A DNA stretch of 64,000 nt from Octopus sinensis (Eukaryota), in contig NC_043000.1 in the NCBI RefSeq assembly GCF_006345805.1, positions 34,348,001 through 34,412,000 on the forward strand. Direction: 5' to 3'. Made by a program: the position numbers and the translations under genes. The notes under the pieces are model-generated. The model did not search any database and was not told the origin of the DNA. It worked only from the letters and a program-made list of their open reading frames with translations. This document shows, in pieces, positions 2,887-62,622 of this stretch (the first letter of the stretch is position 1; each line of letters opens with the position of its first letter).

Positions 2887-3283
2887 ATTTCTATTCTAGA
2901 CACAAGGCCCGAAATTTTGGGGGAGGGAGCCAGTCAATTAGATCGACCCCAGTACACAACTGGTACTTAATTTATCGACCTCGAAAGTACGAATGGCGAA
3001 GTCAACCTCAGCGGAATTTGAACTAAGAACATATAGACAGACGAAATACCTATTTCTTTACTACCCACAAGGGGCTAAACACAGAGGGGACAAAGAAGGA
3101 CAGACAAACGGATTAAGTCGATTACATCGACCCCAGTGCGTAACTGGTACTTATTTAATCGACCCCGAAAGGATGAAAGGCAAAGTCGACCTTGGCGGAA
3201 TTTGAACTCAGAACGTAGCGGCAGACGAAATACTGCTAAGCATTTCGCCCGGCGTGCTAACGATTCTGTCAGCTCGCCGCCTT
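2887..3283 (-). mobile_element. dimeric tRNA-derived SINE (family A full monomer plus partial second monomer with a different tail)
   Basis: Head GGCGGCGAGCTG..., B-box GAGTTCAAATTCC, duplicated GCCTTTCATCCTTTCGGGGTCGAT core; 13-bp TSD TCAGAAAATACTC at 2874-2886 and 3284-3296. Confidence 0.85.
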
Positions 3284-6309: not shown

Positions 6310-6708
6310 TTTTCTAATCTAGGCACAAGGCCCGGAATTTTTAGGGAGGTAACCAGTCGATTAGATCGACCCCAGTACGCAACTGGTACTTAATTTATCG
6401 ACCCCGGAAGTATGAATGGCAAAGTCGACCTCGGCGGAATTTGAACTCAGAATGTAACGGCAGACGAAATACCTATTTCTTTACGACCTACAAGGGGCTA
6501 AACACAGAGTGGACAAACAAGGACAGACAAACGGATTAAGTCGATTACATCGACCCCAGTGCGTAACTGGTACTTATTTAATCGACCCCGAGAGGATGAA
6601 AGGCAAAGTTGACCTTGGCGGAATTTGAACTCAGAACGTTGCGGCAGACGAAATACCGCTAAGCATTTCGCCCGGCGTGGTAACGTCTCTGCCAGCTCGC
6701 CGCCTTTA
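6310..6708 (-). mobile_element. dimeric tRNA-derived SINE, second copy
   Basis: Same architecture and junction as 2887-3283; 15-bp TSD CCAAAAGCTATATTG at 6295-6309 and 6709-6723. Confidence 0.85.
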
Positions 6709-8563: not shown

Positions 8564-8634
<71 letters not shown>

Positions 8635-15687: not shown

Positions 15688-15921
15688 TAAGGCGGCGAGC
15701 TGGCAGAATCGTTTGCACGCCGGGCGAAATGCTTAGCAGTATTTCGTCTGTCGCTACGTTCTGAGTTCAAATTCCGCCGAGATCGACTTTGCCTTTCATC
15801 CTTTCGGGGTCGATAAATTAAGTACCAGTTACGCAATGGGGTTGATATAATCGACTTAATCCGTTTGTCTGTCCTTGTTTGTCCTCCATGTGTTTAGCCC
15901 CTTGTGAGTAGTAAATAAATA
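15688..15921 (+). mobile_element. tRNA-derived SINE family A monomer with Tx1-like tail
   Basis: Full head and core; tail GCCCCTTGTGAGTAGTAAATAAAT; 14-bp TSD AGTATTAATGTAAC at 15672-15685 and 15922-15935. Confidence 0.9.
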
Positions 15922-27205: not shown

Positions 27206-29932
27206 TGTTATTGGCATCCTTTTTGTCTCGGGAGACAATGGAGTTGCGCATAAAATAATCTAGTCCGGCTTTTACAGCTCATGTCCTAATACATCTCCTG
27301 CTGTGGATGTGTAGTTCTATCCTGGACAAACACTCCCTCTGGCAGGTGCCGCAATGTTGCGAAGACTTTGTCTGGCTGGTTGTAATGTCATATTTTCTTG
27401 TTGACGTCTTTTCTTGTCTTTCCATTTCTCCTCTCTCTCAATGTCACTCCTTTGTGTTCCCTCTTTTACGGTACGTCACCAATCTCCACGGTTGATGGCA
27501 ACTGCTTCCCAGTTGGTAATATTGATGTTGCAGGCATTCATGTCCCTTTTGCAAACATCATTGTATCGTAAGAACGGTCTTCCCACAGACCTAGTGCCCC
27601 TAGCAAGCTCTCCGTTGAGTATGTCCTTGGGGATTCTGCCATCTTCCATAGGGCTAACATGTCCAAGCTATCTCATACGTCTTTGTGTGAGGAGTGTAAA
27701 CATGCTTGGTATTCCTGCTTGCTTGAGGACATCTTTGTTGGGGACATGATTCTGCCATTTGATGCGAAGGATTTTCCGGAGGCAGCGCAGGTGAAAGATA
27801 TTTAGGTGACGTATGACGTCGTATGGCGTGTGTATAGCGTCCAAGTCTCACTTCCATACAGTAGGGTGCTAAGTACACATGCCTGGTAAATCTTCATTTT
27901 TGTGGTCTTGGTCAGCTTATTGTTGTCCCATGCCCGTTTGGAGAGTTGGGCCATCACAGCAGCTGCCTTGCCAATGCGTATATTGAGCTCAGTATCAAGG
28001 GATAGGTTGTAGGTGACGGTAGAGCCAAGATAGGTAAACTTCTCCACCACCTGTAGTCTGTAGTCTCCAATATGTATGTTTGGGATGGTCGATGTAGCCT
28101 GACCCATGATGTTGGTCTTCTTGAGGCTGATAACTAAGCCAAAGTTGCCACATGCTTGCTCAAAACAGTTGATGAGCCTTTGTAGGGCTTCTTCTGTGTG
28201 TGATACCAGAGCGGCATCATCAGAAAATAAGCATCTCCTTGATCAGGACGCTTCTGATTTTGGTCTTGGCACGCAGACGCGAGAGATTGAACAGTTTCCC
28301 ATCACTTCTACTGTGCAGAAACACTCCATCATCTGATGTCACAAAGGCATGTGACACCAGCAGCGAGAAGATTCCAAATAATGTAGGAGCAAGGACACAA
28401 CCTTGCTTTACCCCATTTTTTATTTGGAAGGCGGCTGATGTTGAACCATTGTGCTGTATGGTGCCTTGCATATCATCATGGAAAGATGTGATGGCCCTCA
28501 GCAACTTTGGTGGACATCCGATTTTTTGGAGCAGGATGAAGAGGCCTTTTCTACTTACCAAGTCAAAGGCCTTTGTCAGATCAATAAAGGCCATATATAA
28601 TGGCATTTTCTGCTCTCTGGACTTCTCCTGAAGTTGGCGTATGGAGAATATCATGTCAATAGTTGATCTGCTTCTTCTAAAGCCACACTGCGATTCTGGA
28701 TAAATTCGAGAAGTAAGCAGTTGCAGCCTGGACAGGATAATGCGAGCAGAGGCCTCTCCAATAGTGCTTAGAAGAGATATTCCACGGTAATTGTTACAAT
28801 CACCACGGTCACCTTTGTTTTTGTAAAGCGTAATGATGTTAGCATCCCGCATATCCTGAGGGACTGTACCCTCTTCTCAGCACTGACACAGAAGCTCATG
28901 AATGTGCCGAAGTAGGATGGTGTTTTTGCCGGTTTTGATGATCTCTAAGGGGATGCCGTCTTTTCCCGGAGCCTTGTTACTTGCTAGGGAGTCAATAGCC
29001 TTGGTGAGCCCTGCTATGGATGGCAGACTGTCAAGTTCACACATGACTGGCAAGATCTTGACACCCTTGATTACAGCCTCAGCTACCGTGGTCTCTCGTG
29101 AGTAGAGATCCTCGTAGTACTCCACCCATCTATACATTTGCTTGCTTTGGTCCTTGATGAGATCCCCAGTAGTTGATTTTAGAGGGGCTGACTTGGTTGC
29201 GGATGGACCAAGGGGCTTCTTCAAACCGGCATACATCCCACGGGTATCGCCACTGCCAGCAACTGACTGGATACTCTGACAGATTTCCTGCCAATACCTA
29301 TTTGAACAGCGTCTGACAGTCAGTTGGGTTTTATTTCTTGCCTTTCTAAGTTCTTCGAGTGACTTTATAGAAGAATCACTCTTGTATTACATCAGAGCTG
29401 CACGCTTTGTTTCGATAACTGTTTCCAGCTCTGAGAGCCCAGCAATGAACAAAATCTGGGTTTTGCCTTTCTCTCATGCCGAAAGTATCTATTGATGTGG
29501 TATACAAAGCTTCCCTCATATAATTCCACCTACTTTCAGCTGTGGTGGTTGGGCAGCTACTGAGAGCAACTTTGATAGAAACAGCAAAACATTGTCGCAG
29601 TGTAGGTTCGGGGGATTCTGGCAGTGTTAATGCGTGGTCGGCCCATTTTCTTGGAGTGATGGACTTTTTTTAGGCAGAATCCTCACCCTGCTTCTTATTA
29701 GTGAATGATCTGTGTCACAATCCGCGCTGTGGTAACTACGAGTCAGTTGAACAGAATTCAGAAAGGGTCTTCGTGTAATGATGAGATCCAGCTGATGCCA
29801 GAGGTGAGATCTTGGATGTCTCCAAGATGCCTTGTGGGATGTCTTGTTGGCAAAGAATGTGTTAGTTATGCACAAGTATGTGCAAAATTCAAGTAGTCTC
29901 TGGCCATTGTCATTCATGTTGCCAATACCAAA
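27206..29932 (-). mobile_element. 5'-truncated RTE-clade LINE (APE end plus RT), degenerate
   Basis: NDNGQRLLEFC, SWRHPRS, SADCDTDHSL, KAPGKDGIP, NYRGISLLS, FIDLTKAFDLV, GVKQGCVLAPTLF, FTYLGS, LLYGSETW. Confidence 0.93.
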
Positions 29933-30083: not shown

Positions 30084-30866
30084 ATATACATATATGCATA
30101 CACACACATACATACATATATATTGGGAATTTACAAAAGAAACGAACAAAAGACGAAGACGGGTGTGTAAACAGCAAACAGGTTTATTAGTTTAACGCTC
30201 CGGACTTAGGAAAATTTATATAGGGAGTACTAATGATTTTAAAATTAGATATAGGGGACACAAGAATTCATTTATTCACCCCTATATAAAAAATTACAGA
30301 CATTTTAGTATGTTGTAAGCATACATATTTAGCGTCTTATAATTTTCTTAAACTTTAAAATATAATTTTTTAGAATATAAAAGCTTTTTGAAAATACGGT
30401 CCAATTAGATCCAATGAACACTTATGCACAAACCTGTAATCTTAAATAATTTTTTTTATAGTAGTATCAGTACAGAATGAAACCTTCCCATTGGCTATTA
30501 TTTGCATGATTAACTAAAGTTAACCTTTCAATGAATTTCATTTCTTATTTAAACGCGGTCATCCTCTTGAAAATCTGCTGAACCTCATATCGATACTCAA
30601 AAACTGAACTTTCACCAACTGAATACTCGTCATGTAGTGCATTGAACAGTCGTGTTTTTTTGCGTTTATTGTAAGTTGATATATTTTTGCTGTCGTATTA
30701 TTATCTCTGTTATTCTCTACTGTTTGTCTACCTGTTTTGTATATTGCTGTCTAACTGCCGAAGTCAGCCTTCGCGCGAGGACTTCGCGTTGGTGTTCCCC
30801 CCTCCGTGGGGGAAAAATATCAATTATCTTGAAGTTACCAAGGGCTTGTGAAGCCAACTGTTCAAG

Positions 30867-32190
30867 ATGGAGTCCCCCTTCTCTGATTCTCCCGTGACGA
30901 GTGAAGAGGAGTATCCGGCGATGTCGCCAAGGAAAAAAGAGGCGGTGTCGCCAAAGAAAAAAGAGGCGACGTCACCAAAGAAAAAGGAAAACCCAGCACC
31001 AGCACCAGCTCCAGCGAAAAAATTCTCTGAAGTGGCCGGTAAAAAGATTAAAAAAATAAATATGGAAGATTTGGAAAAATATGCGGACTGTGTAAAAAAA
31101 GAGGGCACGGAAGTGACAGTGGTCACAAACGTCCAAAAACACGACGAAATAGAAAAAAAAAGAATAATTTATAAGACATTTAACACGACGACAAAAATGA
31201 TCGAAAAAATTGAAGAAAAAAAAATAGAGAACTGTCTTAAACCATTAATGGACAAAATAACTTACACTAACAGAGGAAAGAGATACGGCACAGTGGAGGT
31301 GCGTTTCACTACAGAGGAGATAGCGAGAAAACTATCTATGGAACCGATTAAAGCGGAGAACATTGTTCTCCTCCCCTTGTATAAAGGGAAAAGAACATCG
31401 ATAATTACGATGAACAACATTCCCCCAGAGGCAGGTGCCGAATGTCTGGTGGCAGCAGTGATGGTAGGCCTGGAGGAAAAAATAAACATCCTCCAGGCCA
31501 CAGTGGAGGAAGAGGAATTTTGGAAAGGACAGAAAATAGTAATAGCCATTCAGGCGGAAGTTCAAACACTGGAGGAAATTCCAGAAACTTTAAAAATAAG
31601 TGAGGAAGAGAGAATAACAGTTTTCGTGGAGGGCAGAAAGCCGAGGTGCTTCGGCTGCGGCAAGAAGGGTCATGTAAGGGCGGAATGCCAACCCCAACCC
31701 AAACCGCAGGAAGCACCTCAGCCAGGTGAAAAAGAAGATAAAGTGTCACCAGAAGCAGTGAAAAAGGCAGCAGAACCAGCGGCGGAGGAAAATAAGAGCG
31801 AGGAAAAGAAAAATGAGGAGGGGTGGGCAAAAATCACCAGAAAAAAAAAAAAGAAAAACGGAAACCACCCCTCCCAGAGTGAACTTAAAAAAGAAAAGAG
31901 AGTCGATGAACTCGTATATGGCCGTTAAGGCATCAAATAACAGACTTGGAAACGTATTGGCAGCTATGGCCAAAGTGGAGAGAATAGGGAAAAAGAACGA
32001 CTATGTAGTTTACAGGATAGGCCGGAAGGATTACGGACGGATAAAATCCGAATTCTTCCATGACGTAGGCCCACTTAGAATGGATGTGACATCTCCACAT
32101 ATATTCGAGGGCCTACGTCAGACTCCCCCACGAGGCCCTGAAAAAGAGTTAAACAAAGAAGAGAAAGAGAAAACCGAACCACTGATATAA
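30867..32190 (+). pseudogene. Tx1 ORF1 (RRM-like region plus CCHC zinc knuckle), frameshift in A-run near 31850
   Basis: RCFGCGKKGHVRAECQP knuckle; ORFs 30867-31928 and 31813-32190 together align with the intact ORF1 of copy 2. Confidence 0.88.
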
Positions 32191-32199
32191 GGGTAAGTA

Positions 32200-35100
32200 A
32201 TGGATTACATTTATGTTGGTTGTTTGAATGTGCGCGGCCTGGGAGCAGGCTGGAAGCAAGGTCGCTTCCTGCATGATATCAGGTCGCGTAATTTAGATGT
32301 TATTGTTGCTACAGAAACCTGGTTAGAGGGGCCAAGAGGTCTTCTCCCGCTGTTTGACGGCTACGAGAGTTTTTTCTCTCCTGGCAGTCCTACAGGCGGG
32401 AAAGGGGTGTTGGTCCTATTAAAAAGAAACCGGGTTTCTGAGAAAAAGTTAATTTTTGCAGATCCAGAAGGTAGGCTGGTCGTCATGGATTTGCCGTTCA
32501 GTAATGGTAAAGTTATCAGACTGGTTGCAATTTACGCACCCAACAGTAAAAAAGGGCAAAGTGATTATTTTCGTGATCTAGAAAAATTTCTTGGTACTTC
32601 GCATTCATTAGTGGTGCTAGGAGACTTTAACACAATTTGCAAAGCGGATGTAGATTGTGTTGGCTCGTGTCCAGATAGGAGAGGTAACAGTGGCTTCATG
32701 GAACTGCTAAGCCGCTTTGAGCTAGCAGATCCGTATAGGCTGGAATTTCCGAACGCTCCATTGTGGACATGGTCAAACAGCGACGGATCTTCCAGGTCAT
32801 ATATAGATAGAATTCTAATTAGAAAAGTAGACAGTAAAATAGCTAAGTGTCTACAGTTTTACCCGATCAGCTACAGTGATCATAAAATGGTCACTTGTAA
32901 GCTTGACATAGATAAGGTTAGAAATAGAGGATCCGGTTACTGGAAACTTAATACGTCCCTTTTGGCGATTAAGGAGTACAAAGACCGGATTAGGAACATA
33001 ATTCAGAGGGCACTATCCGGTACCATCATTAATAACAAATGGTGGTACGCCCTCAAACGAGCCATCAAGTTTGAGTCTATTAGATATAGCATAGGAGTAG
33101 TGGCTAGAGAGGCTAGAGGGGATAATACTCTAGTTAAGGAATTAGAGGAAGCCATGAAAACTGGCTCTGCGGCTCAGGTGGCGTCCAAGAGACTGGTGTT
33201 AAACCAGCACCTCGAGGCCAAACACATGGGCTGCATTGTCAGGGCTAGAATCCGTCATATGGGATGTGAAGGAATCAACGCCGTGAGATGGGCCCGAGTG
33301 GTGGAAGCTCAGCATGGTAACGGTTCCACGATTCGATCTTTGACGAACCAACAAGGTGAGTTGATAAACGAACCCGAGGAGATGTGTGAGGCCTTTCAGG
33401 AGCACTTCGCTCAGCTTTTCGGTGAGTGCGGCGGACTGGATAGGAGGAGGGCCTTTACGGACCTACTCGACGGGCTGCCGCGCTTATCGGGGCGAGATGC
33501 GGAGGGCTGTGAAGGGCCAATCACGCCTGATGAGGTGGTTGAGGCAATGGCGGACTGCGGCGCGGGCAAGGCGCCGGGTTTGGATGGTCTACCCTATGAG
33601 TTATATAAGAGTATGCCAGACTTGTTCGGGCACCTACTGGCGGAGGTCTATGCGAACTGGCAGCAGAACGGGCTCATACCCAGATCTGTGCGCCGGGGAG
33701 TAGTGACTCTCGTCAGAAAGGACCCGAGCAAGGGGGAGTGCATTGATAATTTCAGGCCCATCACTCTGCTAAACACAGAGTTGAAGATTTTGGCCAAAGT
33801 GTTATCGAAAAGATTGGCGCGTGTCGCGGATGGTCTGATCGGAGAGGCACAGACATGTGCCCTTCCGGGCAGATCCATTCAGGATAATCTCCATCTAATG
33901 CGGTACACTATAGAGGGGTTTAATATGATTCTGGCAAGGGTGGGGTACTGGTCCATTTAGACCAATCTAAAGCTTTGATAGGGTCGACCATCGTTACCTG
34001 GTATCTGCCCTGGCACAGTTCGGGCTGAGCCTTGGCTTCCTCAGGTGGATTATCCAAATGTATGATAACATCGACTCGGTAGTTCGGGTGAACGGCTTCT
34101 TGTCGAAGCCGTTCAAAATCAAACGCTCGGTTCGTCAAGGGTGTCCGCTCTCCCCGCTTTTGTACGTGATGGCTCTAGAGCCATTACTGCGAAAACTGAG
34201 CGGCATCCCGAGACAGCCGGGTAATGGAAAATCAGTGTCAGCGTACGCGGATGACATCACCATCATCGTAACCGAAATGGACCACCTATGTAAAGTAGGC
34301 AAGGCCATAGAGGTTTACGAGACGGTGACAGGAGCAAAAGTTAATCGCGAAAAGTCAGTCGGCTTGCAACTCGGCACCTGGAGAGGCAAGTCGATGCCTC
34401 CTGACAGCGTCGTGGGACGTTGGACGGAGGGTCCGATTAAACTGCTAGGGGTCTGGTTCGGTCCAGACCTCCAAATAGAGAAGAATTGGGGCGAGGTAAC
34501 GAGCAAGGTGGCTGCAGTAGCCAAGACCTGGTCTTGGCGGTGGCTATCCTTGAAAGGGAGGGCGGAGGTGGCCAATGTGTTTATCGCATCGGTTATCACC
34601 TACCGCCTTTCCGTCGTTCCTTGCCCCGATTCGTGGTTGACCAAGTTGGAAAGACAGCTCTTCTACTTCTTGTGGAAGGGTAGGAAACCACTTGTGAAAC
34701 GCTCTACTTGCTGTCAACAACCGTTAAAGGGTGGGCTAGGGATGCCTTGGCTGATGATGCGCAGACATGCGCTGAGGTTAAGACATCTGTGGCTCTACCT
34801 GGATGGTGAACGGGTGTGGTCTCCGTTAGCAAAACTGATGTTTCCCAAGTTCACTAGTTTCGGTGGATGGGAAACCTGGCTGAATCGTAGATCGAAACTC
34901 GGTACTTGGTACACGGAGTGTCGCAAGGCTCTCCTGCTATTCCGTCGCTCGGGCAACGCCTGCGGTGGGGGTTCCACCACATTCTTCTATAGAGGGTTGG
35001 TAGAGGCTGAATGTGAAGATACCTTGGGGGAAACCCTAGGTCTCGACGATAATCAGCTGGCCAGTCTGTTCCGACGTACGTTCAAGCCGAGGACACTGGA

Positions 35101-35596
35101 CAACTTCCAGAAGTCTCTGGCATGGCAATGCTACAGAGGAGCTCTACCTGTTCGGGATAAACTCGCAAGGCACGGTGGCCGAGACAGTCCGATATGTCCA
35201 AGATTCGGGCGGGATAGGGAAACCGTCCCGCACGCTATTGTTCATTGTCCGGACGTGTCTGAGGTGTGGGTTTATGCCGAACAGCTGTTGTCAGGTACAC
35301 GAAGAGTACAGCTGTCGACTGAGTCGATTACAAAAATTGACCCACCGGATTTCCTCGTGAATGAAGGTAAGTTTCGTTTTCTCGTTGTAGTAGCAATTGC
35401 GAAAGAGGTGATATGGAAGACGAGAGTGAAAGGTTTACAGTCAGGCAAGTTCATCTCTGGCCCTGGTTTGATGAATTATTTCATCTTCCACCTGAAAAGG
35501 AAGATAGGGCTGGAGAGAATATGCCTGACTAGGAGAGTGTATGAAGAACGATGGAAAGATGTGGCACGGAAGTTGCGAGTGAAAGATACAACATAA
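32200..35596 (+). pseudogene. Tx1 ORF2 (APE, RT, C-terminal zinc finger) with two 1-bp deletions near 33924 and 33973
   Basis: Colinear with copy 2 ORF2; CPRC changed to CPRF in the zinc finger. Confidence 0.92.
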
Positions 35597-36062
35597 ATGT
35601 AATACCAAGCGCAACCAAAAGTATCAGTGGGGAGGCGGGGCTCGTGGGGTCCGAGCTAAACCCGCACCCACTCCATCTGTAATGTCTTCCGGTCTATTCC
35701 ATCATTCGATTTGTGTATATTCTTGTAATTTCATGTTATTTTTAAATCCGATTTTTTGTAAAAACCATCCGTATGTCTGACCCCACATCAGATTGTATTG
35801 TCCCCTCTATGTTCGCCCCTTGTGGGTAGTAATAAAATCAACTGAATACTCGTCATAGTGTATAGTGAGTTATTATATTTTTGCCTTGTGTATATTTTCT
35901 CTGTTGTGATCTACTGTGTGTCTAGCTGTCTTTCTGTATTGTTGTACAACTATTGAAGTCGGCCTTCGTGCGAGGGCTTCGTGTTGGTGTTCCCCCCTCC
36001 GTGGGGGAAAAACTATCATTATCTTGGTTGTGCCAAGGACTTGTTAAAGCCAGTTATCGGAG

Positions 36063-37379
36063 ATGGAATCCCCCATCTCATATTCACCTGTGACTAGTGA
36101 TGCAGGATCACCGGCGGTGTCGCCAAAGAAAAAAGAGGCGGGGTCGCCAAAGAAAAAAGATATTCCAGCACCAGCGAAAACATTTTCGGAAGTAGCTGGT
36201 AAAAAAATTAAAAAAATTAATGTCGAAAACCTAAAGAAACATGCGGACTGTGTGTCAAAAGAGGGCACGGAAGTAACCGTGGCTTCAAACGCCCAAAAAC
36301 AGGAAGAAATTACAAATAGAAGAATAATTTATAAGACCTTCAATACAACAAGCAGATCAATACAAAAAATAGAGGAGAAAAAAATCGAAAATTGCTTAAA
36401 GCCGATAATGGATAAAATCACATACATCAATCGAGGGAAGAAATACGGCACAGTGGAGGTGAGATTCACAACAGAGGAGGTAGCTAAGAAGCTATCCATG
36501 GAACCAATAAAAGCGGAGGATATTGTTCTCCTACCCCTGTATAAAGGCAAAAGAACATCAAAGATCACAATGAATAATATTCCGCCAGAAGCGGATGCCG
36601 AAGTTCTGGTGGCAGCAGTTATGGTAGGCCTGGAGGAAAAAATAAACATCCTCCAGGCCACTGTAGAGGAGGAAGAATTCTGGAAAGGGCAACGGATAAT
36701 AATAGCCATCCAGGCAGAAATACAAACCCTGGAGGAGATTCCAGAGACTCTAAAAATAAGCGAAGAAGATAGAGTCACAGTCTTCGTAGAGGGCAGAAAG
36801 CCGAGGTGCTTCGGCTGCGGTAAGAAAGGGCATGTAAGGGCAGAATGCCAACCCAAACCGCAAGAAGCAGCTAAGCCAAGTGGAAAAGCAGAAGAGGTGT
36901 CATCAGAAACAGCGCTGGTCGGCCCAGGAGGGACGGTTGAAGGTGTGGAGGTGACAGAGGCAGCGGAACCAGCGGCGGAGGCAAAAAAGAGCGAGGAAAC
37001 GAAAAAGGAGGAGGGGTGGTCAAAAATCACTAGAAAAAAAAGAAAAACTGAAACCACCCCTCCCAAAGTAAATCAAAAGAAGAAAAGAGAGTCGTTGAAC
37101 TCATTTATGGCCGTTAAGGCCACGAACAATAGACTCGGTAATGTGTTGGCAGCGATGGCCAAAGTAGAAAAAATAGGGAGGAAAAATGACTATGTATTGT
37201 ACAGAATAGGCCGGAAGGATTACGGACGGATAAAGTCCGAATTTTTTCATGACGTAGGCCCGCTCAGAATGGATATAACATCTCCATATATATTCGAGGT
37301 CCTGCGTCAGACTCCCCCACGAGGCACAGAAAAAGAGACAAACAAAGAAGAAAAAGAAAAAACCGAACCACTGATATAA
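36063..37379 (+). CDS. Tx1 ORF1 protein, 438 aa nucleic-acid-binding protein with CCHC knuckle
   Basis: Open ORF; YGTVEVRF RRM-like strand; CxxCxxxGHxxxxC. Confidence 0.9.
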   Translation: MESPISYSPVTSDAGSPAVSPKKKEAGSPKKKDIPAPAKTFSEVAGKKIKKINVENLKKHADCVSKEGTEVTVASNAQKQEEITNRRIIYKTFNTTSRSIQKIEEKKIENCLKPIMDKITYINRGKKYGTVEVRFTTEEVAKKLSMEPIKAEDIVLLPLYKGKRTSKITMNNIPPEADAEVLVAAVMVGLEEKINILQATVEEEEFWKGQRIIIAIQAEIQTLEEIPETLKISEEDRVTVFVEGRKPRCFGCGKKGHVRAECQPKPQEAAKPSGKAEEVSSETALVGPGGTVEGVEVTEAAEPAAEAKKSEETKKEEGWSKITRKKRKTETTPPKVNQKKKRESLNSFMAVKATNNRLGNVLAAMAKVEKIGRKNDYVLYRIGRKDYGRIKSEFFHDVGPLRMDITSPYIFEVLRQTPPRGTEKETNKEEKEKTEPLI

Positions 37380-37388
37380 GGGTAAGTA

Positions 37389-40300
37389 ATGGATTACATT
37401 TATGTTGGTTGTTTGAATGTGCGAGGCCTGGGAGCAGGCTGGAAGCAAGGTCGCTTCCTGCATGATATCAGGTCGCGTAATTTAGATGTTATTGTTGCTA
37501 CAGAAACCTGGTTAGAGGGGCCAAGAGGTCTACTCCCGCTGTTTGACGGCTACGAGAGTTTTTTCTCTCCTGGCAGTCCTACAGGCGGGAGAGGGGTGTT
37601 GGTCCTATTAAAAAGAAACCGGGTTTCTGAGAAAAAGTTAATTTTTGCAGATCCAGAAGGTAGGCTGGTCGTCATGGATTTGACGTTCAGTAATGGTAAA
37701 GTTATCAGACTGGTTGCAATTTACGCACCCAACAGTAAAAAATGGCAAAGTGATTATTTTCGTGATCTAGAAAAATTTCTTGGTACTTCGCATTCATTAG
37801 TGGTGCTAGGAGACTTTAACACAATTTGCAAAGCGGATGTAGATTGTGTTGGCTCGTGTCCAGATAGGAGAGGTAACAGTGGCTTCATGGAACTGCTAAG
37901 CCGCTTTGAGCTAGCAGATCCGTATAGGCTGGAATTTCCGAACGCTCCATTGTGGACATGGTCAAACAGCGACGGATCTTCCAGGTCATATATAGATAGA
38001 ATTCTAATTAGAAAAGTAGACAGTAAAATAGCTAAGTGTCCACAGTTTTATCCGATCAGCTACAGTGATCATAAAATGGTCACTTGTAAGCTTGACATAG
38101 ATAAGTTTAGAAATAGAGGATCCGGTTACTGGAAACTTAATACGTCCCTTTTGGCGATTAAGGAGTACAAAGACCGGATTAGGAACATAATTCAGAGGGC
38201 ACTATCCGGTACCATCATTAACAACAAATGGTGGTACGCCCTCAAACGAGCCATCAAGTTTGAGTCTATTAGATATAGCATAGGAGTAGTGGCTAGAGAG
38301 GCTAGAGGGGATAATACTCTAGTTAAGGAATTAGAGGAAGCCATGAAAACTGGCTCTGCGGCTCAGGTGGCGTCCAAGAGACTGGTGTTAAACCAGCACC
38401 TCGAGGCCAAACACATGGGCTGCATTGTCAGGGCTAGAATCCGTCATATGGGATGTGAAGGAATCAACGCCGTGAGATGGGCCCGAGTGGTGGAAGCTCA
38501 GCATGGTAACGGTGCCACGATTCGATCTTTGACGAACCAAGAAGGTGAGTTGATAAACGAACCCGAGGAGATGTGTGAGGCCTTTCAGGAGCACTTCGCT
38601 CAGCTTTTCGGTGAGTGCGGCGGACTGGATAGGAGGAGGGCCTTTACGGACCTACTCGACGGGCTGCCGCGCTTATCGGGGCGAGATGCGGAGGGCTGTG
38701 AAGGGCCAATCACGCCTGAGGAGGTGGTTGAGGCAATGGCAGACTGCGGCGCGGGCAAGGCGCCGGGTTTGGATGGTCTACCCTATGAGTTATATAAGAG
38801 TATGCCAGACTTGTTCGGGCACCTACTGGCGGAGGTCTATGCGAACTGGCAGCAGAACGGGCTTATACCCAGATCTGTGCGCCGGGGAGTGGTGACCCTC
38901 GTCAGAAAGGACCCGAGCAAGGGGGAGTGTATTGATAATTTCAGGCCCATCACTCTGCTAAACACAGAGTTGACGATTTTGGCCAAAGTGTTATCGAAAA
39001 GATTGGCGCGTGTCGCGGATGGTCTGATCGGGGAGGCACAGACATGTGCCGTTCCGGGCAGATCCATTCAGGATAATCTCCATCTAATGCGGTACACTAT
39101 AGAGGGGTTTAATAATGATTCTGGCAAGGGTGGGGTACTGGTCCATTTAGACCAATCTAAAGCCTTTGATAGGGCCGACCATTGTTACCTGGTATCTGCC
39201 CTGGCACAGTTCGGGCTGAGTCTTGGCTTCCTCAGGTGGATTATCCAAATGTATGATAACATCGACTCGGTAGTTCGGGTGAACGGCTTCTTGTCGAAGC
39301 CGTTCAAAATCAAACGCTCGGTTCGTCAAGGGTGTCCGCTCTCCCCGCTTTTGTACGTGATGGCTCTTGAGCCATTACTGCGAAAACTTAGCGGCATCCC
39401 GAGACAGCCAGGTAATGGAAAATCAGTGTCAGCGTACGCGGATGACATCACCATCATCGTAACCGAAATGGACCACCTATGTAAAGTAGGCAAGGCCATA
39501 GAGGCTTACGAGACGGTGACAGGAGCAAAAGTTAATCGCGAAAAGTCAGTCGGCTTGCAACTCGGCACCTGGAGAGGCAAGTCGATGCCTCCTGACAGCG
39601 TCGTGGGACGTTGGACGGAGGGTCCGATTAAACTGCTAGGGGTCTGGTTCGGTCCAGACCTCCAAATAGAGAAGAATTGGGGCGAGGTAACGAGCAAGGT
39701 GGCTGCAGTAGCCAAGACCTGGTCTTGGCGGTGGCTATCCTTGAAAGGGAGGGCGGAGGTGGCCAATGTGTTTATCGCATCGGTTATCACCTACCGCCTT
39801 TCCGTCGTTCCTTGCCCTGATTCGTGGTTGACCAAGTTGGAAAGACAGCTCTTCTACTTCTTGTGGAAGGGTAGGAAACCACTTGTGAAACGCTCTACTT
39901 GCTGTCAACAACCGTTAAAGGGTGGGCTAGGGATGCCTTGGCTGATGATGCGCAGACATGCGCTGAGGTTAAGACATCTGTGGCTCTACCTGGATGGTGA
40001 ACGGGTGTGGTCTCCGTTAGCAAAACTGATGTTTCCCAAGTTCACTAGTTTCGGTGGATGGGAAACCTGGCTGAATCGTAGATCGAAACTCGGTACTTGG
40101 TACACGGAGTGTCGCAAGGCTCTCCTGCTATTCCGTCGCTCGGGCAACGCCTGCGGTGGGGGTTCCACCACATTCTTCTATAGAGGGTTGGTAGAGGCTG
40201 AATGTGAAGATACCTTGGGGGAAACCCTAGGTCTCGACGATAATCAGCTGGCCAGTCTGTTCCGACGTACGTTCAAGCCGAGGACACTGGACAACTTCCA

Positions 40301-40787
40301 GAAGTCTCTGGCATGGCAATGCTACAGAGGAGCTCTACCTGTTCGGGATAAACTCGCAAGGCACGGTGGCCAAGACAGTCCGATATGTCCAAGATGCGGG
40401 CGGGATAGGGAAACCGTCCCGCACGCTATTGTTCATTGTCCGGACGTGTCTGAGGTGTGGGTTTATGCCGAACAGCTGTTGTCAGGTACACGAAGAGTAC
40501 AGCTGTCGACTGAGTCGATTACAAAAATTGACCCACCGGATTTCCTCGTGAATGAAGGTAAGTTTCGTTTTCTCGTTGTAGTAGCAATTGCGAAAGAGGT
40601 GATATGGAAGACGAGAGTGAAAGGTTTACAGTCAGGCAAGTTCATCTCTGGCCCTGGTTTGATGAATTATTTCATCTTCCACCTGAAAAGGAAGATAGGG
40701 CTGGAGAGAATATGCCTGACTAGGAGAGTGTATGAAGAACGATGGAAAGATGTGGCACGGAAGTTGCGAGTGAAAGATACAACATAA
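37389..40787 (+). CDS. Tx1 ORF2 protein, 1132 aa: AP endonuclease, reverse transcriptase, zf-RVT
   Basis: LNVRGL, ETW, IYAPN, GDFN, SYIDR, SDH (APE); WKLNTSLL; KAPGLDG, FRPITLLN, DQSKAFDR, RQGCPLSP, YADD (RT); KGGLGMP; CPRC-x8-H-x4-C. Confidence 0.97.
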   Translation: MDYIYVGCLNVRGLGAGWKQGRFLHDIRSRNLDVIVATETWLEGPRGLLPLFDGYESFFSPGSPTGGRGVLVLLKRNRVSEKKLIFADPEGRLVVMDLTFSNGKVIRLVAIYAPNSKKWQSDYFRDLEKFLGTSHSLVVLGDFNTICKADVDCVGSCPDRRGNSGFMELLSRFELADPYRLEFPNAPLWTWSNSDGSSRSYIDRILIRKVDSKIAKCPQFYPISYSDHKMVTCKLDIDKFRNRGSGYWKLNTSLLAIKEYKDRIRNIIQRALSGTIINNKWWYALKRAIKFESIRYSIGVVAREARGDNTLVKELEEAMKTGSAAQVASKRLVLNQHLEAKHMGCIVRARIRHMGCEGINAVRWARVVEAQHGNGATIRSLTNQEGELINEPEEMCEAFQEHFAQLFGECGGLDRRRAFTDLLDGLPRLSGRDAEGCEGPITPEEVVEAMADCGAGKAPGLDGLPYELYKSMPDLFGHLLAEVYANWQQNGLIPRSVRRGVVTLVRKDPSKGECIDNFRPITLLNTELTILAKVLSKRLARVADGLIGEAQTCAVPGRSIQDNLHLMRYTIEGFNNDSGKGGVLVHLDQSKAFDRADHCYLVSALAQFGLSLGFLRWIIQMYDNIDSVVRVNGFLSKPFKIKRSVRQGCPLSPLLYVMALEPLLRKLSGIPRQPGNGKSVSAYADDITIIVTEMDHLCKVGKAIEAYETVTGAKVNREKSVGLQLGTWRGKSMPPDSVVGRWTEGPIKLLGVWFGPDLQIEKNWGEVTSKVAAVAKTWSWRWLSLKGRAEVANVFIASVITYRLSVVPCPDSWLTKLERQLFYFLWKGRKPLVKRSTCCQQPLKGGLGMPWLMMRRHALRLRHLWLYLDGERVWSPLAKLMFPKFTSFGGWETWLNRRSKLGTWYTECRKALLLFRRSGNACGGGSTTFFYRGLVEAECEDTLGETLGLDDNQLASLFRRTFKPRTLDNFQKSLAWQCYRGALPVRDKLARHGGQDSPICPRCGRDRETVPHAIVHCPDVSEVWVYAEQLLSGTRRVQLSTESITKIDPPDFLVNEGKFRFLVVVAIAKEVIWKTRVKGLQSGKFISGPGLMNYFIFHLKRKIGLERICLTRRVYEERWKDVARKLRVKDTT

Positions 40788-41043
40788 ATGTAATACCAAG
40801 CGCAACCAAAAGTATCAGTGGGGAGGCGGGGCTCGTGGGGTCCGAGCTAAACCCGCACCCACTCCACCTGTAATGTCTTCCGGTCTATTCCATCATTCGA
40901 TTTTGTGTATATTCTTGTAATTTCATGTTATTTTTAAATCCGATTTTTTGTAAAAACCATCCGTATGTCTGACCCCACATCAGATTGTATTGTCCCCTCT
41001 ATGTTCGCCCCTTGTGGGTAGTAATAAAATCAACTGAATACTC

Positions 41044-41092
41044 ACCATGTAGTACCTTACTGATTTTTGCTGGATTTTACCTCGAGAAAGGA
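41044..41092 (-). other. putative short exon ending ATG|GTGAGT, containing a TCT-initiator match
   Basis: Minus strand TCCTTTCT (YYC+1TTTYY) at 41092-41085; ATG at 41048-41046; donor GT at 41045-41044. No partner exon found. Confidence 0.35.
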
Positions 41093-41093
41093 A

Positions 41094-41440
41094 GTACTTG
41101 TATCGCAGAGTGGTCCCGGTTTGCGCACACACGCAGACGCGCGTCCGCGCTAACCAGACGTAGGCAGTCGATCGTACGAGCTGATTGGCGCATGCACGAT
41201 ATATACTTGTATCGATATATACGTGTATACGATATATACTTGTATATATACGATATATACTTGTATCGCACAAGTATATATCATATATATACAAGTATAT
41301 ATCGTATACACGTATATATCGATACAAGTATATATCGTGCATGCGCCAGTCAGCTCGTACGATCGACTGCCTACGTCTGGCTAGCACGGACGCGCGTCTG
41401 CGCGTGTGCGCAAACCGGGACCACTCTGCGATACAAGTAC
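41094..41440. mobile_element. 347-bp palindromic foldback MITE, Mutator-like
   Basis: ~170-bp arms GTACTTGTATCGCAGAG...CTCTGCGATACAAGTAC; 11-bp TSD CGAGAAAGGAA at 41083-41093 and 41441-41451. Confidence 0.88.
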
Positions 41441-41598
41441 CGAGAAAGGAAACCTGAGGAAGGAGGGCTAAATTTCGAATACTTCGTACAACCACTTTTC
41501 TGAAACGGCTGCAGGTTAGGAAAAAAATTTTAATCGCCTCTTTCAATTTAGGTTTTTATTTTTCATGTTTATATTCGTATTTCATTGTTATGTTTATA

Positions 41599-42406: not shown

Positions 42407-43132
42407 CACTGGCGAAAATAAATTTAAGATCGATTATAAAAGTTCTATTTCTTTCAAAATATTCTGTTACTAGCCCTTTGCCGATCTTTATATTGACCAG
42501 TATCCGAGTATAACTTCCACGCTTGCACGCAAGCCGGTTTACTGCACTTTAGTTGCTTGCTGATGTCCGAAAAGGAAACTTATTGCTGTAATATACGATT
42601 TTTGCTCTCGTGACTGGACTAAGGCTACTTTGTTTTCCCATTATTAATAAATTGTATAATAACATTAAATTACAACTTTATATGATGCATTTAGGCTCGT
42701 TGTGTGACCACCCATTTTGGCCAAAAAAATTGCATACTTATTACATGGTCTTAAACTAATTTTGCCGGTAAATTTGAAACGTTTATATTACGCTCTGAGT
42801 TCAAATTCCGCCGAGGTCGACTTTGCCTTTCATCCTTTCGGGTCGATAAATTAAGTACCAGTGACGCACTGGGGTCGATGTAATCGACTTAATCCGTTTG
42901 TCTGTCCTTGTTTGTCCCCTCTATGTTTAGCCCCTTGTGGGCAGTAAAGAAATATATATTAATTTAGCATTAGAATTCTTCAAGTTGTATAAAAATTGTT
43001 TGCATCATTCGAAAGAGAAATAAATTTTGCATAAGGTGTAAAAGATATGAATAATTTGTATGGTGTTAGTAACAAAATATTTTGTAAGAAGTAGAACTTT
43101 TATCGTCGGTCTTAAATATATTTTCGCTGGTG
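42407..43132 (-). mobile_element. internally deleted Tc1-like element
   Basis: TIRs CACTGGCGAAAATAAATTTAAGA / TCTTAAATATATTTTCGCTGGTG; inner repeat near 42750; N-terminal HTH remnant MGKQSSLSPVTRAKIV...ISKQLKCSK...YSDTGQYKDRQR. Confidence 0.65.
42787..42953 (+). mobile_element. 5'-truncated family A SINE
   Basis: Core plus tail TTGTCCCCTCTATGTTTAGCCCCTTGTGGGCAGTAAAGAAAT. Confidence 0.88.
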
Positions 43133-43140: not shown

Positions 43141-45705
43141 TCAGGTCATCCCATAAGTTCTGTCCGAATTTTGAATAAAGAATCCAAGTGATCAAATGTT
43201 ATATTTAATTGAAAGTTAATCATCAATGTACTTTCCCTGATTATCTATGACTTCCTTACATCTATTTACAAGCTTTTTAATTCCATCAATGTAAAACTCT
43301 TTTGGTTTCAAAGCGAAGAACTCTGAAATGTCAGGTTCGACCTCCTCCTGGCTTGCGAAAGTTGTGTCCCCCTAAAGGAGTAAGGTCGGGAGAATAAGTT
43401 GGATGAAGAAATTTTTCCAAACCGACCTCTTCGATCTTCTGTGATGTGATCTTTGCAGTGTGGGGTTGCGCATTGTCCTGATGAAACACCACTCATTTTC
43501 GACTCACTAAAGCGGCTCTTTTTTCCTTCAAAGCTTGGTTCAAACGCTCTAATTGTTGACAGTAGACTTGAGCATTGATTGTTGCATTAGGTGGTAACAA
43601 TATAAAGTGAATTACGCCTTTGCAATCGCACCAGATAGAGTAGAACCTTTTTCCCCATGAAGTTCCCTTCTTGGTTGTGGTTGAACATTTTCCCTTTTAC
43701 CAAGCCACTTTTTACGACGTTTAACATTTCGATAGAAAATCCATTTTTCGTCACAAGTCTATCGAAAAAGGGTGAAATGAGTTTGCGAGAATGGAGAGAA
43801 GAGCAGATGTCAACTCAGGATTTGCGGTTGCTTTCGGACAATACATGAGGCACCTATTTTCCAAGTTTAGGAATATTTCCAAGTTGTTGAAGATGACGAT
43901 GAACTGTTGTATGGTTTGAAGTAAGCTTTATTGCCAATTCTTCAACTGATAATGGCGGATTTTCTTCAAGTAATGCCTCAAGGAGCTTATCATCAAACTC
44001 AACTGGACATCCTATTCGATCTTCATCTTCAATTTTGCAAACGATCTCCTGCAAGTTCCTTCATTCAAGCACTTTCCCTTAAACTGAGTGTATGTTTCGA
44101 ATCACTTCGGTTGCAGAGTTACCCTTATTGTACTCATAAAGAATTATATGTGCCTTAAATGCTCCTTGGATACTTCCATGTTGAAAGGGTTTTAATCAAA
44201 GCAATTTTAGGGTGTCCACGAAGTCTGGGTAGATGAATAAAATCATAACAATTATAAGAAATAATAATTTTCCTTTTTTTACTTTTGTTTAAATTAAATA
44301 AAAAAATACGTTACTTTTTAAAAATTATTTGTTATTTTTTCTACAGATGATCGAAGAAGAAAGAAGAAAGAATCCCAGATCGAATGACGGATCTGTCTAA
44401 AGAAGAAAGAATCCCAGATCGAATGACGGATCTGTCTAAAGAAGAAAGAATCGAGTTAGTATTATTAAGTGGACGAGAGGAATGGTCTTATTGCAAAATT
44501 GCGGAAGAATTTAATCTTCGACACCCTTATAGGCAACCTTTTTTTTTACTGCCGTCGGGAAATTGATCACGAAATTTAAAGAAACAGGCAGTGTTTTGGA
44601 TAAACCCCGTTCCGGGCGATCAAAGACTTCAGATGAAACGAAAGAGGCTGTCGAGGCTAAAGTTTCTGCTAGCCCAAAGAAATCACTTCGGACATCCACG
44701 GTGTTAGGTGTTCCAAAACTAACCATCCACAAAATGCTGGTTGAGGAAAAGTTTCATCGATACAACCTACAGATACTGCATCACTTAAATGAAGACGACC
44801 CTGATAGACGAATGTAGACGTGCGAATGGTTTTCAGATAAATTGGATGAAAATATCAATTTTACGAAAAACTTTGTGTTGTTCAGTGACAAAGCTACGTT
44901 TTATGTAACTGGTGAGGTCAACAGACAGAATCTTCTGTACTGGTCTCGAGGTAATCCACATTGGATGGATCCATCCAAACAGCAAGGCAGTAAAAAGGTG
45001 ATGGTGTGGTGTGGTTTGTGGAAAGTTCATGTTCTAGGATCCTTCTTCATTGAACGTGTAACGGATGAGACTTATGTAAACATATTTAGAGACAAATTAA
45101 TATCTCAAATTGAGCGCCTAGGCGAGGGCCTTCCGAATTGGTTTCAGCAGGATGGGGCCCCTACCCATTTTGCCACAACTGTTAGAGATTGGCTTAATGA
45201 CACTTTTCCTCACTAGTTTGGAAGAAGGGCTCATATGTTAAGGTCCCCTCGTTCACCAGACCTTTCTCCCCTTGATTTCTTTTTCTGGGGTATGTTGAAA
45301 GAAAAATTACAATAAAGATTACAGATTTAAGGCACATGAGAGAACGCATTACCAGTCAGTGTGTTGAAATTGATGGCAATGTAGACTTATTTAATCAAGT
45401 TCACCTGAATTTTGCAAGGCGCATCAAGTTATGCATTAAAAATGATGGAAATCACTTTGAAAATATTATTTATTAACATTATAATTAAATAAAATTGTTT
45501 TGTTTTAAAAGTATGTGTTAATCCCCATGTACGCAGACTTTGTGGACACCCTCTATTATTTTGTAAAACAGTATTGAATTAGTTTAAACGTACACAAATG
45601 CATAAACATAATTTTTAATTGAATTAGACATTTGAAATTACTATTAAATTTCATTCAAATCTAAAAAAAAAGGTAAAATTGAACAGAACTGATTGGATGA
45701 CTTGA
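43141..45705 (-). mobile_element. degenerate mariner interrupted by a rosa-like element
   Basis: TIRs TCAGGTCATCCCATAAGTTCTGTCC / GAACAGAACTGATTGGATGACTTGA; transposase remnants (TVHRHLQQLG, VTKNGF/CDEKW region, FHQDNA). Confidence 0.85.
44208..45553 (+). mobile_element. rosa/DD41D-like Tc1-mariner element
   Basis: TIRs AGGGTGTCCACGAAGTCTG / CAGACTTTGTGGACACCCT followed by TA; KFKETGSVLDKPRSGR, FSDKATF, FQQDGAPTH...PRSPDLSPLDFFFWG (40 residues between the last two Asp in this decayed copy). Confidence 0.85.
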
Positions 45706-47797: not shown

Positions 47798-48329
47798 ATA
47801 TATATACAACATATATGTATGCATATATATATTATGACAGAAAGGAGAAGAATTTAATGCAGTAATATAATATATATAGCAATATATAATATGGAAGAAG
47901 GACACTGCGGAATAAACTAAAAGAAGAGCATGAAGTGCGTGGTGGTGGTAGTGATGGTGGTGGGTGGACTCTGAAAGGGGGAGATTTCTGGAGGAGTGGG
48001 CGTGGTAGGAACATTCTAGGTGGACGTATATAAAAGGTAGATGAAGAAAGAAAGGCTGAAAAGTCTTTTGAAGCTTGGCAGATGTGTTCAGAGACGACTC
48101 AGAACGGAAAGAGACAGCGCCTCACCGTCTTCTGTCCGTCTACCCAACTCCTCCCTCCATCTGAACGCCTCATCTCTTACTCATCCTTTCTATCACTTTC
48201 AATCGCTCTCTCCCACACCCATCTCTCTCTCTCTCTCCCTCTTCGAACCACTGAAGCACATATACACACTCTAAGAGTCTCCCTACACATTTAGATACTT
48301 AAATATACATTAATGTACTTATGTCGTCG

Positions 48330-48700
48330 TCGTGGCACTCCGTCGGTTAAGACGACGAGGCTCCCAGTTGATCCGATCAACGGAACAGCCTGCTCGTGAA
48401 ACTAACGTGTAAATGACTGAGCACTCTACAGATACGTATACCCTTAACGTAGTTCTTGGGGAGATTCAACATGACACAGAGTATGACAAGGCTGATCGCT
48501 TTGAAAATGCAGGTACAACAGAAACAGGAGGAAAGAGTGAGAGAAAGTTGTGGTGAAATAGTACAGCAGGGTTCGTCACCACCCCTTGCCGGAGCCTCGT
48601 GGAGCTTTGGGTGTTTTCACTCAATAAACACTCACAGCGCCCGGTCTGGGAATCGAAACCGCGAATCCGCTGCTTTAACCCCTGGACCATTGCGCCCCCA
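48330..48700. repeat. SINE-like interspersed repeat (family D)
   Basis: GATCCGATCAACGGAACAGC...GCTCGTGAAA...CTGAGCACTC block recurs at 51945-52200. Confidence 0.6.
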
Positions 48701-50792: not shown

Positions 50793-51519
50793 CACTGGAA
50801 GGCATAACACGTAAGCAAGGTTTTAGGCTCAGTAGAAAGTTACAGCTCCTATACCCGGCACAAATAGACGAACGACATCGAACATCCGTCATAGATTAGC
50901 GTGAGGAATTCGAGCCACTTTATAGCAATAATAAGCACAGAAAATGTAACTGTATTTTAAGCTGTATATAATATACGTTTCATTGAATTGTGTATCGTTA
51001 TTACGCAAGGCAATTGGCCAAATTGCGTAATACAATCGACTCATCTCCGCAGCATTCTTGGCGAATAATACAAAGGTTAGAGGGTATTTACCCTAAAATA
51101 TTTCACTTATGCAAATTAGCTTTATACTTTTGATTTGGCAGAACAAAAGACGACAAGGTGTGAAGTGGTAGGATGGTGTTAAGAAAATATAGATAAACGA
51201 TCGATGTGAGGAAGACGGAGGTGATGCTTCCCCCCCCCCCTTATGTATGCAACCAGACACACAGACACCACATTTACACGCCCATTCACTCATGTGACCA
51301 AGTGCGCCAATATATATCTAGTGGAGAGGAGAGAAGGAAACGATATAAGCCGAAAGCCTGGTAGGATCAACAAAAACGGCAACCACAACAATAGTACAAA
51401 TGATAAGATGGTAGCCTCTAGTAATTCCAGAAAGATGTTTCTGGAATTTTTCCTTGAATAACCTGAACAATGATTTGTTTATAGTGATCAAACGTTTGCG
51501 TTATACATAAGCTCACTTT

Positions 51520-51750
51520 AAATCGGCGAGCTAGCAGAAACGTTAGCACGCCGGGCGAAATGCGTAGCCGTATTTCGTCTGCCGTTACGTTCTGAGTTCA
51601 AATTCCGCCAAGGTCGACATTGCCTTTCGTCCTTTCGGGGTCGATAAATTAAGTACCAGTTACGCACTGGGTCGATCTAATCGACTTAATCCGTTTGTCT
51701 GTCCTTGTTTGTCCCCTCCATGTTTAGCCCCTTGTGGGTAATAAGACAAA
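51520..51750 (+). mobile_element. family A SINE monomer
   Basis: Full head, core and tail; imperfect TSD GTTATA(C/G)ATAAGCTC. Confidence 0.88.
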
Positions 51751-52204
51751 CAGTTATAGATAAGCTCGCTCCCTCCATCAGCTGTATGGTGTACTGTAGG
51801 TCAGGTATCGAGTGATCTCAGAACAACGTGCGATAAAATATTTTGCTCAATGATATAACGCATTACCCGGTCAAGGAATTGAAACCACAATCTCGCGATT
51901 GTGAGTGGAATACTCTAACCACGAGTCTATGCGCCTTCGACATTCGTTGTGACACTCAGTCGGTTACGACGACAAAGTTTCCAGTCGATCCGATCAACGG
52001 AACAGCTTGCTCGTGAAATTAAACGTGCAAGTGGCTGAGCACTCCACAGACACGTGTACTCCTAACGTAGTTCTGAGGGCCCTTTGAAATACAGGTACAT
52101 CTCATTTTTGCCAGCTGAGTGAACTGAAACAACGTGAAATAAAGTGTCTTGCTTAAGGACACAACGCGTCGCCGGGAATTGAACTCACGACCTTACAGTC
52201 GTGA

Positions 52205-52357: not shown

Positions 52358-52404
<47 letters not shown>

Positions 52405-54309: not shown

Positions 54310-54452
54310 TTTTCTACTCTAGGCACAAGGCCCGAAATTTTTGTGGAGGGGCCAGTCGATTAAATCGATCCCCGTGCGCAACTGGTACTTATTTATCGAC
54401 CCCGAAAGGATAAACGGCGGAATCTGAACTCAGAACACAAAGACAGACAAAA
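54310..54452 (-). mobile_element. partial SINE (second-monomer type of family A)
   Basis: CTAGGCACAAGGCCCGAAATTTT tail plus core, as at 2887 and 6310. Confidence 0.75.
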
Positions 54453-54531
54453 TTACATATATACTTTGATACTTTGATAGGTTTCGGCCATTATTGGCCC
54501 AGGCCATGTCTAACTTAATAGCACCACCTGG

Positions 54532-62447: not shown

Positions 62448-62619
62448 GGGCGGTATTTCATCTGTCGTTACGTTCTGAGTTCAAATTCCGCTGAGGTCGA
62501 CTTTGCCTTTCATCGTGTTGGGGTCGATTAAATAAGTACCATTTACACACTGGGGTCGGTGTAATCGACTTAATCATTTTGTCTGTCCTCTATATTTAGC
62601 CCCCAGTTGGCAATAAAGA

Positions 62620-62622
<3 letters not shown>
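62448..62622 (+). mobile_element. truncated family A SINE
   Basis: B-box, core and degenerate tail. Confidence 0.75.

Follow-up and report, generated by a model that had tools for sequence, protein, structure and literature searches.

A 64,000-nt stretch of the Octopus sinensis genome (assembly GCF_006345805.1, contig NC_043000.1, forward-strand positions 34,348,001 to 34,412,000; hereafter the window) raises the question of whether an L1-group long interspersed nuclear element (LINE) can lend its 3′ tail to, and copy, a short interspersed nuclear element (SINE) in an animal. Tail sharing is textbook for LINEs of the L2, CR1 and RTE clades, and the L1 group is the stated exception. The window is AT-rich animal DNA (37.7% GC) with many microsatellites and interspersed repeats, among them two L1/Tx1-type LINEs (LINE1 and LINE2), a SINE family, A, with a tail like theirs, and a family, B, that has the A body with a different tail (Table 1). 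Judged from sequence, one L1/Tx1-type lineage probably has 3′ ends homologous to both SINE tails, and the product of its second open reading frame (ORF2) likely copies the SINEs by way of a terminal hairpin with a CUNGU loop. We hold the LINE origin of the SINE tails, taken alone, to be highly probable.

We found that the 3′ end of LINE2 (40959–41030) and the terminal 62 nt of SINE A can be aligned with a single 10-nt indel, and that 55 of the 61 aligned bases are identical between the LINE and the SINE A majority tail. BLAST within the window matched the LINE end to the SINE end at 42912–42953, as the original prediction had claimed, over 46–47 nt at 87% identity (E = 3–6 × 10−9). Tails A1 to A5 gave local alignment scores of 52–68, compared to shuffle maxima of 29–35 (0/1000 shuffles each), and the tail of the decayed copy A6, which the prediction had not included, scored 25 (22/1000 shuffles). 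Together, the BLAST E-values and the shuffles reject a chance match of the LINE and SINE tails. The further tails predicted at 3051–3095, 6474–6515, 15880–15921 and 51710–51750 are present, the first two on the minus strand; the common tail is real, and only its predicted extent was too short.

The boundaries of the match are equally sharp. Upstream of the tail, the LINE 3′ untranslated region (UTR) shows no similarity to the SINE body (local scores of 15 at most). The LINE match starts 2 nt past the point where SINE A and SINE B diverge. Therefore, the entire A-specific module is the LINE-like part. Two other LINEs in the window, whose motifs we take to place them in the RTE and R4/Dong-like clades, do not match the tail better, the other case that had been raised against the prediction: tail A scored 63–68 against the Tx1-type end, compared to 14–18 against the R4/Dong-like fragment and the 3′ end of the RTE element. 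We rejected an RTE- or R4/Dong-type tail partner on these scores within the window; the Dong-like fragment has no 3′ end, and its clade could still hold a partner.

ORF2 of LINE2 matches Pfam families PF03372, PF00078 and PF13966, has its catalytic motifs and finds L1 endonuclease structures as its best PDB matches. Its architecture is that of the L1 group, with an N-terminal APE endonuclease, a reverse transcriptase (RT) and a C-terminal CCHC finger. In a 49-row RT tree, the window LINE falls inside a 46-row group (98/99) with plant, fungal and algal L1-type rows and rows named TX1, and the window RTE element lies outside that group on a long branch. Membership of the Tx1 clade is likely rather than established, because curated Tx1L and vertebrate L1 sequences are absent from the tree; the TX1 names on its rows are automatic. 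ORF1 carries a CCHC zinc knuckle (CX2CX4HX4C), which we take to be a feature of the Tx1 clade. A Pfam search of the LINE ORF1 returned no matches, and its look-alikes in a structure atlas (0.89–0.92) are zf-CCHC and ZCCHC3-type RNA-binding domains, mostly molluscan. We rejected a small-RNA gene as the LINE's target: no Rfam match in the window reached gathering level, the flanks gave only weak or palindrome-driven matches, and no RNA family fits them.

A small hairpin lies near the end of the shared tail. The predicted GCCC-CTTGT-GGGY stem-loop is perfect in both LINEs and in three of the six A copies (A1, A4 and A5), and in A2, A3 and A6 its pairs are broken, so that the prediction stands for part of the family. 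Family B, which the prediction had overlooked and on which the covariation depends, occurs as two units in A+B dimers and one monomer. It retains the CUUGU loop and the closing pair, with a GGGC/GCCU stem instead of GCCC/GGGY. Two of the four stem pairs are changed on both sides between the A and LINE ends and those of B and the relatives described below. A hairpin alignment from the window only was paired in 92.5% of 40 cells (1/500 shuffles), and one of 17 ends in 95.6% of 68 cells, with a covariation of 0.607 (0/500 shuffles; slid controls all lower). The 10-nt insertion seen only in the LINE also completes a small upstream hairpin (40969–40985), the loop of which might base-pair with the 3′ side of the terminal stem (41013–41018); we dropped this hairpin and its possible pseudoknot (z = −0.27).

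We scanned genome contigs with a profile of the ORF2 alignment and obtained 51 loci. Contigs of a single record (CAXXMW01) hold 48 of them, as tandem arrays that we interpret as eukaryotic DNA contaminating a bacterial assembly. After leaving out L049 (partial ORF2) and L004, L017, L027, L033 and L039 (cut before the 3′ end), all 42 complete relatives, at 38–43% ORF2 identity, carry a CUNGU-loop hairpin at the 3′ end. These ends consist of a pyrimidine tract, a GGC/GCC stem with the CUNGU loop and another, short hairpin, followed by AATAAA 17–21 nt past the first hairpin, with no poly(A). The terminal hairpin is found in none of three more distant elements (L046, L047 and L051, with 34%, 27% and 25% ORF2 identity), and a covariance model gave no terminal match on them. 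In the RT tree, the window LINE and three carriers form one clade (100/99), L046 and L047 fall outside it, and L051 is a long branch.

The SINE A body was not found in the relatives' loci. A local SINE capture, with other Tx1 copies lacking the tail, had been named as the case that would undo the prediction; instead, the relatives carry a homologous terminal hairpin without the SINE body. Compared to the relatives' ends, all three B tails exceeded every shuffle for L001 and L022 (0/200), other subfamilies were weaker and L038 was at chance. The covariance model, built from nine foreign ends only, ranked the three B tails at the top of the 64 kb (E = 6 × 10−4 for B1, 0.01 for B2 and 6 × 10−4 for B3; next 0.28). 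Foreign Tx1-type ends are the link for tail B, and the window LINE is that for tail A. Because the relatives' ends carry the hairpin and the foreign model ranks the B tails first, the tail is likely a signal of the LINE lineage and not a local SINE capture. The predicted donation of the tail by a Tx1-type lineage is consistent with the hairpin that relatives share without the SINE body and with the failure of the other LINE clades in the window to match.

We propose that the SINE body acquired tails twice, by template switch or recombination. The source of tail B would be a subfamily with the GGC/GCC stem, as in the foreign relatives, and that of tail A an ancestor of the window LINE with a CCC/GGG stem. 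ORF2 would bind the hairpin loop and prime reverse transcription just downstream, at the endonuclease nick, and the outcome would be target-site duplications (TSDs) of 13–15 bp and no poly(A). A broader generalization, that an old invertebrate L1/Tx1 branch is stringent, reads the CUNGU hairpin, begins reverse transcription at AATAAA in the absence of poly(A) and on two occasions passed its tail to the SINE body flooding octopus-type genomes, is tentative, and we put it a little short of an even chance.

Families A and B are SINEs by size (units of ~235 bp, below 700 bp), and they are non-coding, interspersed, flanked by TSDs and in some cases 5′-truncated; the window holds six A and three B units. 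An A-box-like motif occurs in three of the four full heads, the B-box pattern was unmatched by our script although a similar motif is visible, and ARAGORN and Rfam gave no tRNA identity for the head. In the window, A copies are 88–99% identical to their majority, and the LINE pair is 99% alike. The two A+B dimers (2874–3296 and 6295–6723, minus strand) each have one TSD and an identical junction, with tail A followed by B from an internal GTATT site; they likely represent a dimeric subfamily born by A inserting into B.

The SINE TSDs had been predicted at ~14–15 bp, and we found 13, 15, 14, 15 (one mismatch) and 14 bp, together with one doubtful TSD of 7 bp and none for A6. The 13-mer flanking the LINEs occurs exactly three times, to the left, between and to the right of them, as expected of the predicted 13-bp LINE TSD; its length is not secure, because the junction match extends past the 13-mer, to 18 nt and to 21/23 nt. 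The LINE1 5′ end resembles the DNA to the right of LINE2 in 21 of 23 nt, including the TSD. SINE and LINE TSDs are alike in length, and none of the SINE TSDs matches the LINE 13-mer, as had been noted. A TAT[AT] motif, chosen after the fact, lies 2–3 nt into the TSD at five of six SINE sites and at 4 in the sixth, where the TSD start is ambiguous; the A-into-B junctions also fit, and the background is 3–7% per site. The single LINE site has the motif on the opposite strand only, which speaks mildly for another subfamily as the source of the SINE insertions. Consequently, the SINE copies were probably mobilised directly by a subfamily that is older than, or sister to, the young copy at 35852–41030, and not by that copy itself.

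The relatives' arrays bear on target choice. The loci L001–L045 and L048–L050 form subfamily-specific head-to-tail arrays with a period of ~6.8 kb and a junction sequence particular to each. The bases past AATAAA vary by array, with 18 distinct 8-mers, of about nine types, in 65 ends. Therefore, the lineage appears to lack a single fixed target and yet builds same-site tandems, and the window 13-mer need not be a fixed target either. The earlier guess of a less specific relative fits both this variation in the 3′ junctions and a SINE motif unlike the LINE site. Conceivably, transcripts that run past AATAAA would carry the donor's TSD and anneal to the same site; likewise, the SINE target motif could reflect annealing of the SINE 3′ end rather than endonuclease choice. 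One of the distant elements, the L1/Tx1-type L047 (positions 2104–9205; 27% ORF2 identity), sits in a U1 small nuclear RNA gene: ORF1 is preceded by a complete U1, and the sequence past the 3′ end of the element continues as U1 from about position 35. In the sections of PMC4494074 consulted, U1-derived heads are named, and U1 is not among the Tx1 targets.

Several observations weigh against copying of both SINE families through the hairpin. The compensatory change, although it covers two pairs, counts as a single lineage event. Folding energy lends the hairpin no support (z = −0.5 to −0.7), and for the tail as a whole a different minimum-energy fold is predicted. The alignment of tail B to the window LINE is weak for B1 (74/1000 and 8/300 shuffles) and at chance level for B2 and B3, and the foreign covariance model recovers neither the A tails nor the LINE tails up to an E-value of 10; for these reasons, the link from A to B rests on the loop, the stem swap and their position. 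Two genomes were sampled, with all 42 relatives from one record and two window LINEs that are 99% identical at the 3′ end. To these we add the opposite-strand motif at the LINE site and a partial fit of the SINE sites to the 'T-run plus TA' signature of RTE elements, complete in A4 and partial in A3 (PMC13295347).

The last two points would suit an explanation in which the SINEs took their tails from the Tx1-type lineage long ago and were expanded by another LINE, of RTE/BovB or Dong/R4 type, that ignores the hairpin. The SINE target motif is missing, in sense orientation, from the LINE site, the RTE signature is seen at one or two of six sites, A6 adjoins the R4/Dong-like RT fragment and terminates in (AAT)n, and stems are broken in three of six A copies. 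However, both tails have kept the loop and paired stems, four of the six sites misfit the RTE signature, the tails carry no RTE end, and the broken pairs are as expected from 4–12% decay after insertion. We consider this explanation unlikely. Very unlikely, in our view, is that the hairpin and AATAAA form a 3′-processing or stability signal of the LINE mRNA with which the SINE, mobilised via an A-rich end, hitch-hiked. The hairpin is weak, and it directly precedes AATAAA in the window LINE and stands 17–21 nt ahead of it in the relatives, but the SINE tails retain the hairpin and mostly not AATAAA, and LINE and SINE insertions alike lack a terminal poly(A). Finally, a reverse capture, in which the window LINE picked up the 3′ end of an abundant SINE A copy, is highly improbable: the two window LINEs share one recent 3′ end and so count as one observation, and the A-type stem was not found in the foreign relatives, but no SINE body lies upstream of the LINE tail, the junction is within 2 nt of the A/B swap point, and relatives without the SINE A body end in a homologous hairpin and AATAAA.

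The copying of SINEs by an L1/Tx1-type ORF2 is thus the reading that we favor, and the LINE pair that carries the tail has a history of its own. LINE1 and LINE2 are arranged head to tail, with ~99% identity in ORF2 and the 3′ UTR and 77–88% in the 5′ UTR and ORF1. Their ORF1s differ by a dS of ~1.0 and a dN of ~0.09 (265 codons), and are two long-separated ORF1 lineages on one ORF2; the 5′ divergence (30629–32190 versus 35852–37380) is due to either a 5′-module swap or gene conversion. Two 1-bp deletions, near 33924 and 33972, disrupt the LINE1 ORF2, either by mutation or by assembly error. On the minus strand at 41031–41093, a pyrimidine tract is followed by ~40 nt, an ATG and a donor-like GTGAGT motif that overlaps the LINE TSD, and a first intron may begin where the LINE pair lies. 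A host exon for this motif was not found among 18 open frames, which gave RT matches only, short exons not being scanned. A palindromic element resembling a miniature inverted-repeat transposable element (MITE) lies 50 bp from the LINE end (41083–41451, the element itself 41094–41440), with a 37-bp perfect terminal inverted repeat and 11-bp flanking direct repeats, a TSD length from which we presume a Mutator-type element.

Table 1. Positions of the LINEs, SINEs and associated features in the window
Feature	Position	Strand	Remarks
LINE1	30629..35838	+	Upstream tandem copy of LINE2; ORF2 disrupted
LINE1 copy of common tail	35767..35838	+	Hairpin 35815-35827
LINE2	35852..41030	+	Full-length L1/Tx1-type element
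LINE2 ORF1	36063-37379	+	One CCHC knuckle
LINE2 ORF2	37389-40787	+	Intact, 1132 aa; APE endonuclease, RT, zf-RVT
LINE2 3′ UTR	40788-41030	+	
LINE2 3′ segment in common with SINE A tail	40959..41030	+	72 nt; 10-nt insertion relative to SINE
LINE2 terminal hairpin	41007..41019	+	4-bp stem GCCC/GGGU, CUUGU loop
AATAAA at very end of LINE2	41023..41028	+	No poly(A) tract after it
13-bp direct repeat (TSD), left copy	30616..30628	+	
13-bp direct repeat, between LINE1 and LINE2	35839..35851	+	
13-bp direct repeat, right copy	41031..41043	+	
SINE A1	3052..3283	-	First unit of A+B dimer; hairpin 3063-3075
SINE B1	2887..3051	-	Second unit of dimer; B-type tail, hairpin 2898-2910
A1+B1 dimer TSD	3284-3296 and 2874-2886		13 bp
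SINE A2	6475..6707	-	First unit of A+B dimer
SINE B2	6310..6474	-	Hairpin 6321-6333
A2+B2 dimer TSD	6709-6723 and 6295-6309		15 bp
SINE A3	15688..15921	+	Full length; TSD 14 bp, 15672-15685 and 15922-15935
SINE A4	42789..42953	+	5′-truncated; tail 42892-42953, hairpin 42930-42942; doubtful 7-bp TSD
SINE A5	51518..51752	+	Full length; TSD 15 bp, one mismatch, 51500-51514 and 51753-51767
SINE A6	62450..62622	+	5′-truncated, decayed (88% to majority); then (AAT)n; no TSD
SINE B3	54313..54453	-	5′-truncated monomer; hairpin 54321-54333; TSD ~14 bp, 54454-54467 and 54299-54312
RTE-type LINE	~27200-29900	-	Decayed; with its 3′ end
R4/Dong-like RT fragment	61878-62449	+	Without 3′ end; truncated by SINE A6 and runs of (AAT)n

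The window holds other repeats as well. A third SINE family (11440–11840, 24368–24785, 52203–52795, 16686–16847 and 11172–11346) consists of a head, a microsatellite spacer and a second module, and its 3′ end has a different hairpin, with a CAGTC stem and an AAAT loop; it matches neither the Tx1 nor the RTE end of the window. The tails of families D and E scored at chance level against the same two ends. Families A, B and C+D presumably belong to the octopus SINEs. Further repeats lie at 175–671 and 43166–43627, 62714–63199 and 63431–63900, 15341–15501, and 48327–48456 and 51944–52074; they include two non-coding families, one flanked by (ATT)n, and what we take by eye to be mariner-like transposase remnants.

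If the broader generalization about an old invertebrate L1/Tx1 branch is true, no earlier tail pair of an animal L1-group element would be known, and the case would directly support stringent recognition as ancestral in the L1 group. A hairpin conserved across 39% ORF2 identity in an animal L1-group tail would bear on whether the 'relaxed' poly(A)-type recognition of mammals is derived. An intact ORF2 is at hand for testing stringent recognition, and the natural A/B stem swap offers ready-made cognate and non-cognate substrates. The lineage may also have driven the expansion of SINEs in octopus genomes: in O. vulgaris, SINEs make up 11.6% of the genome and 421 recently active L1-Tx1 insertions are reported (PMC13282606). 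The tRNA-derived SINEs OK, OR1 and OR2 have been described in octopus (cited in PMC4758252 and PMC4824008). We found no report in the literature of an animal Tx1 or L1 tail in common with a SINE, or of an octopus SINE partner; SINEBase, Repbase, Dfam or the 1994 octopus SINE paper may record the pair.

The closest mechanistic parallels are the stringent pairs of the L2, CR1 and RTE clades, such as UnaL2/UnaSINE and ZfL2, Bov-B/Sauria, and the bivalve pairs with CR1, CR1-Zenon, L2 and Nimb. In L2 LINEs, a stringent ORF2 binds the 3′ stem-loop, reading the loop specifically and the stem generally (PMC4176376). The octopus pair resembles these in a common 3′ segment of similar length (35–61 bp at 72–95% in bivalves; PMC11481361), in a terminal stem-loop with compensatory changes and in tail swapping on one SINE body (PMC4824008). 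Unlike them, the octopus LINE is of the L1 group, with a CCHC knuckle in ORF1 and a zf-RVT domain, the tail ends at AATAAA with no terminal simple repeat, and binding of the stem-loop is a prediction.

Within the L1 clade, maize LINE1-1_ZM pairs with ZmSINE2/3 and Chlamydomonas L1-1_CR with SINEX-3_CR; L1 tails account for 3 of the 58 pairs surveyed, none of these three being animal, and the 58 include no octopus pair (PMC3472496, PMC3747384). As in those pairs, an L1-group LINE and its SINEs have in common a conserved 3′ hairpin with a variable stem and a fixed loop. The maize and Chlamydomonas pairs are plant or algal and end in poly(A) or (T)n, whereas the present one belongs to an animal lineage, with a CUNGU loop, no poly(A) and two sister tails. 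The crocodilian SINEU/Tx1-Mar system provides an animal SINE attributed to Tx1 machinery, with tandem insertions that sandwich one TSD, as here (PMC4494074). That link consists of a common target and U1/U2 heads; SINEU ends in poly(A), and a LINE with the SINEU-1 3′ terminus was not found there (PMC4494074). In the octopus, in contrast, the link is the tail, and the target differs between LINE and SINE. The mechanism is therefore a known one, and the LINE group is one in which tail sharing is the exception.
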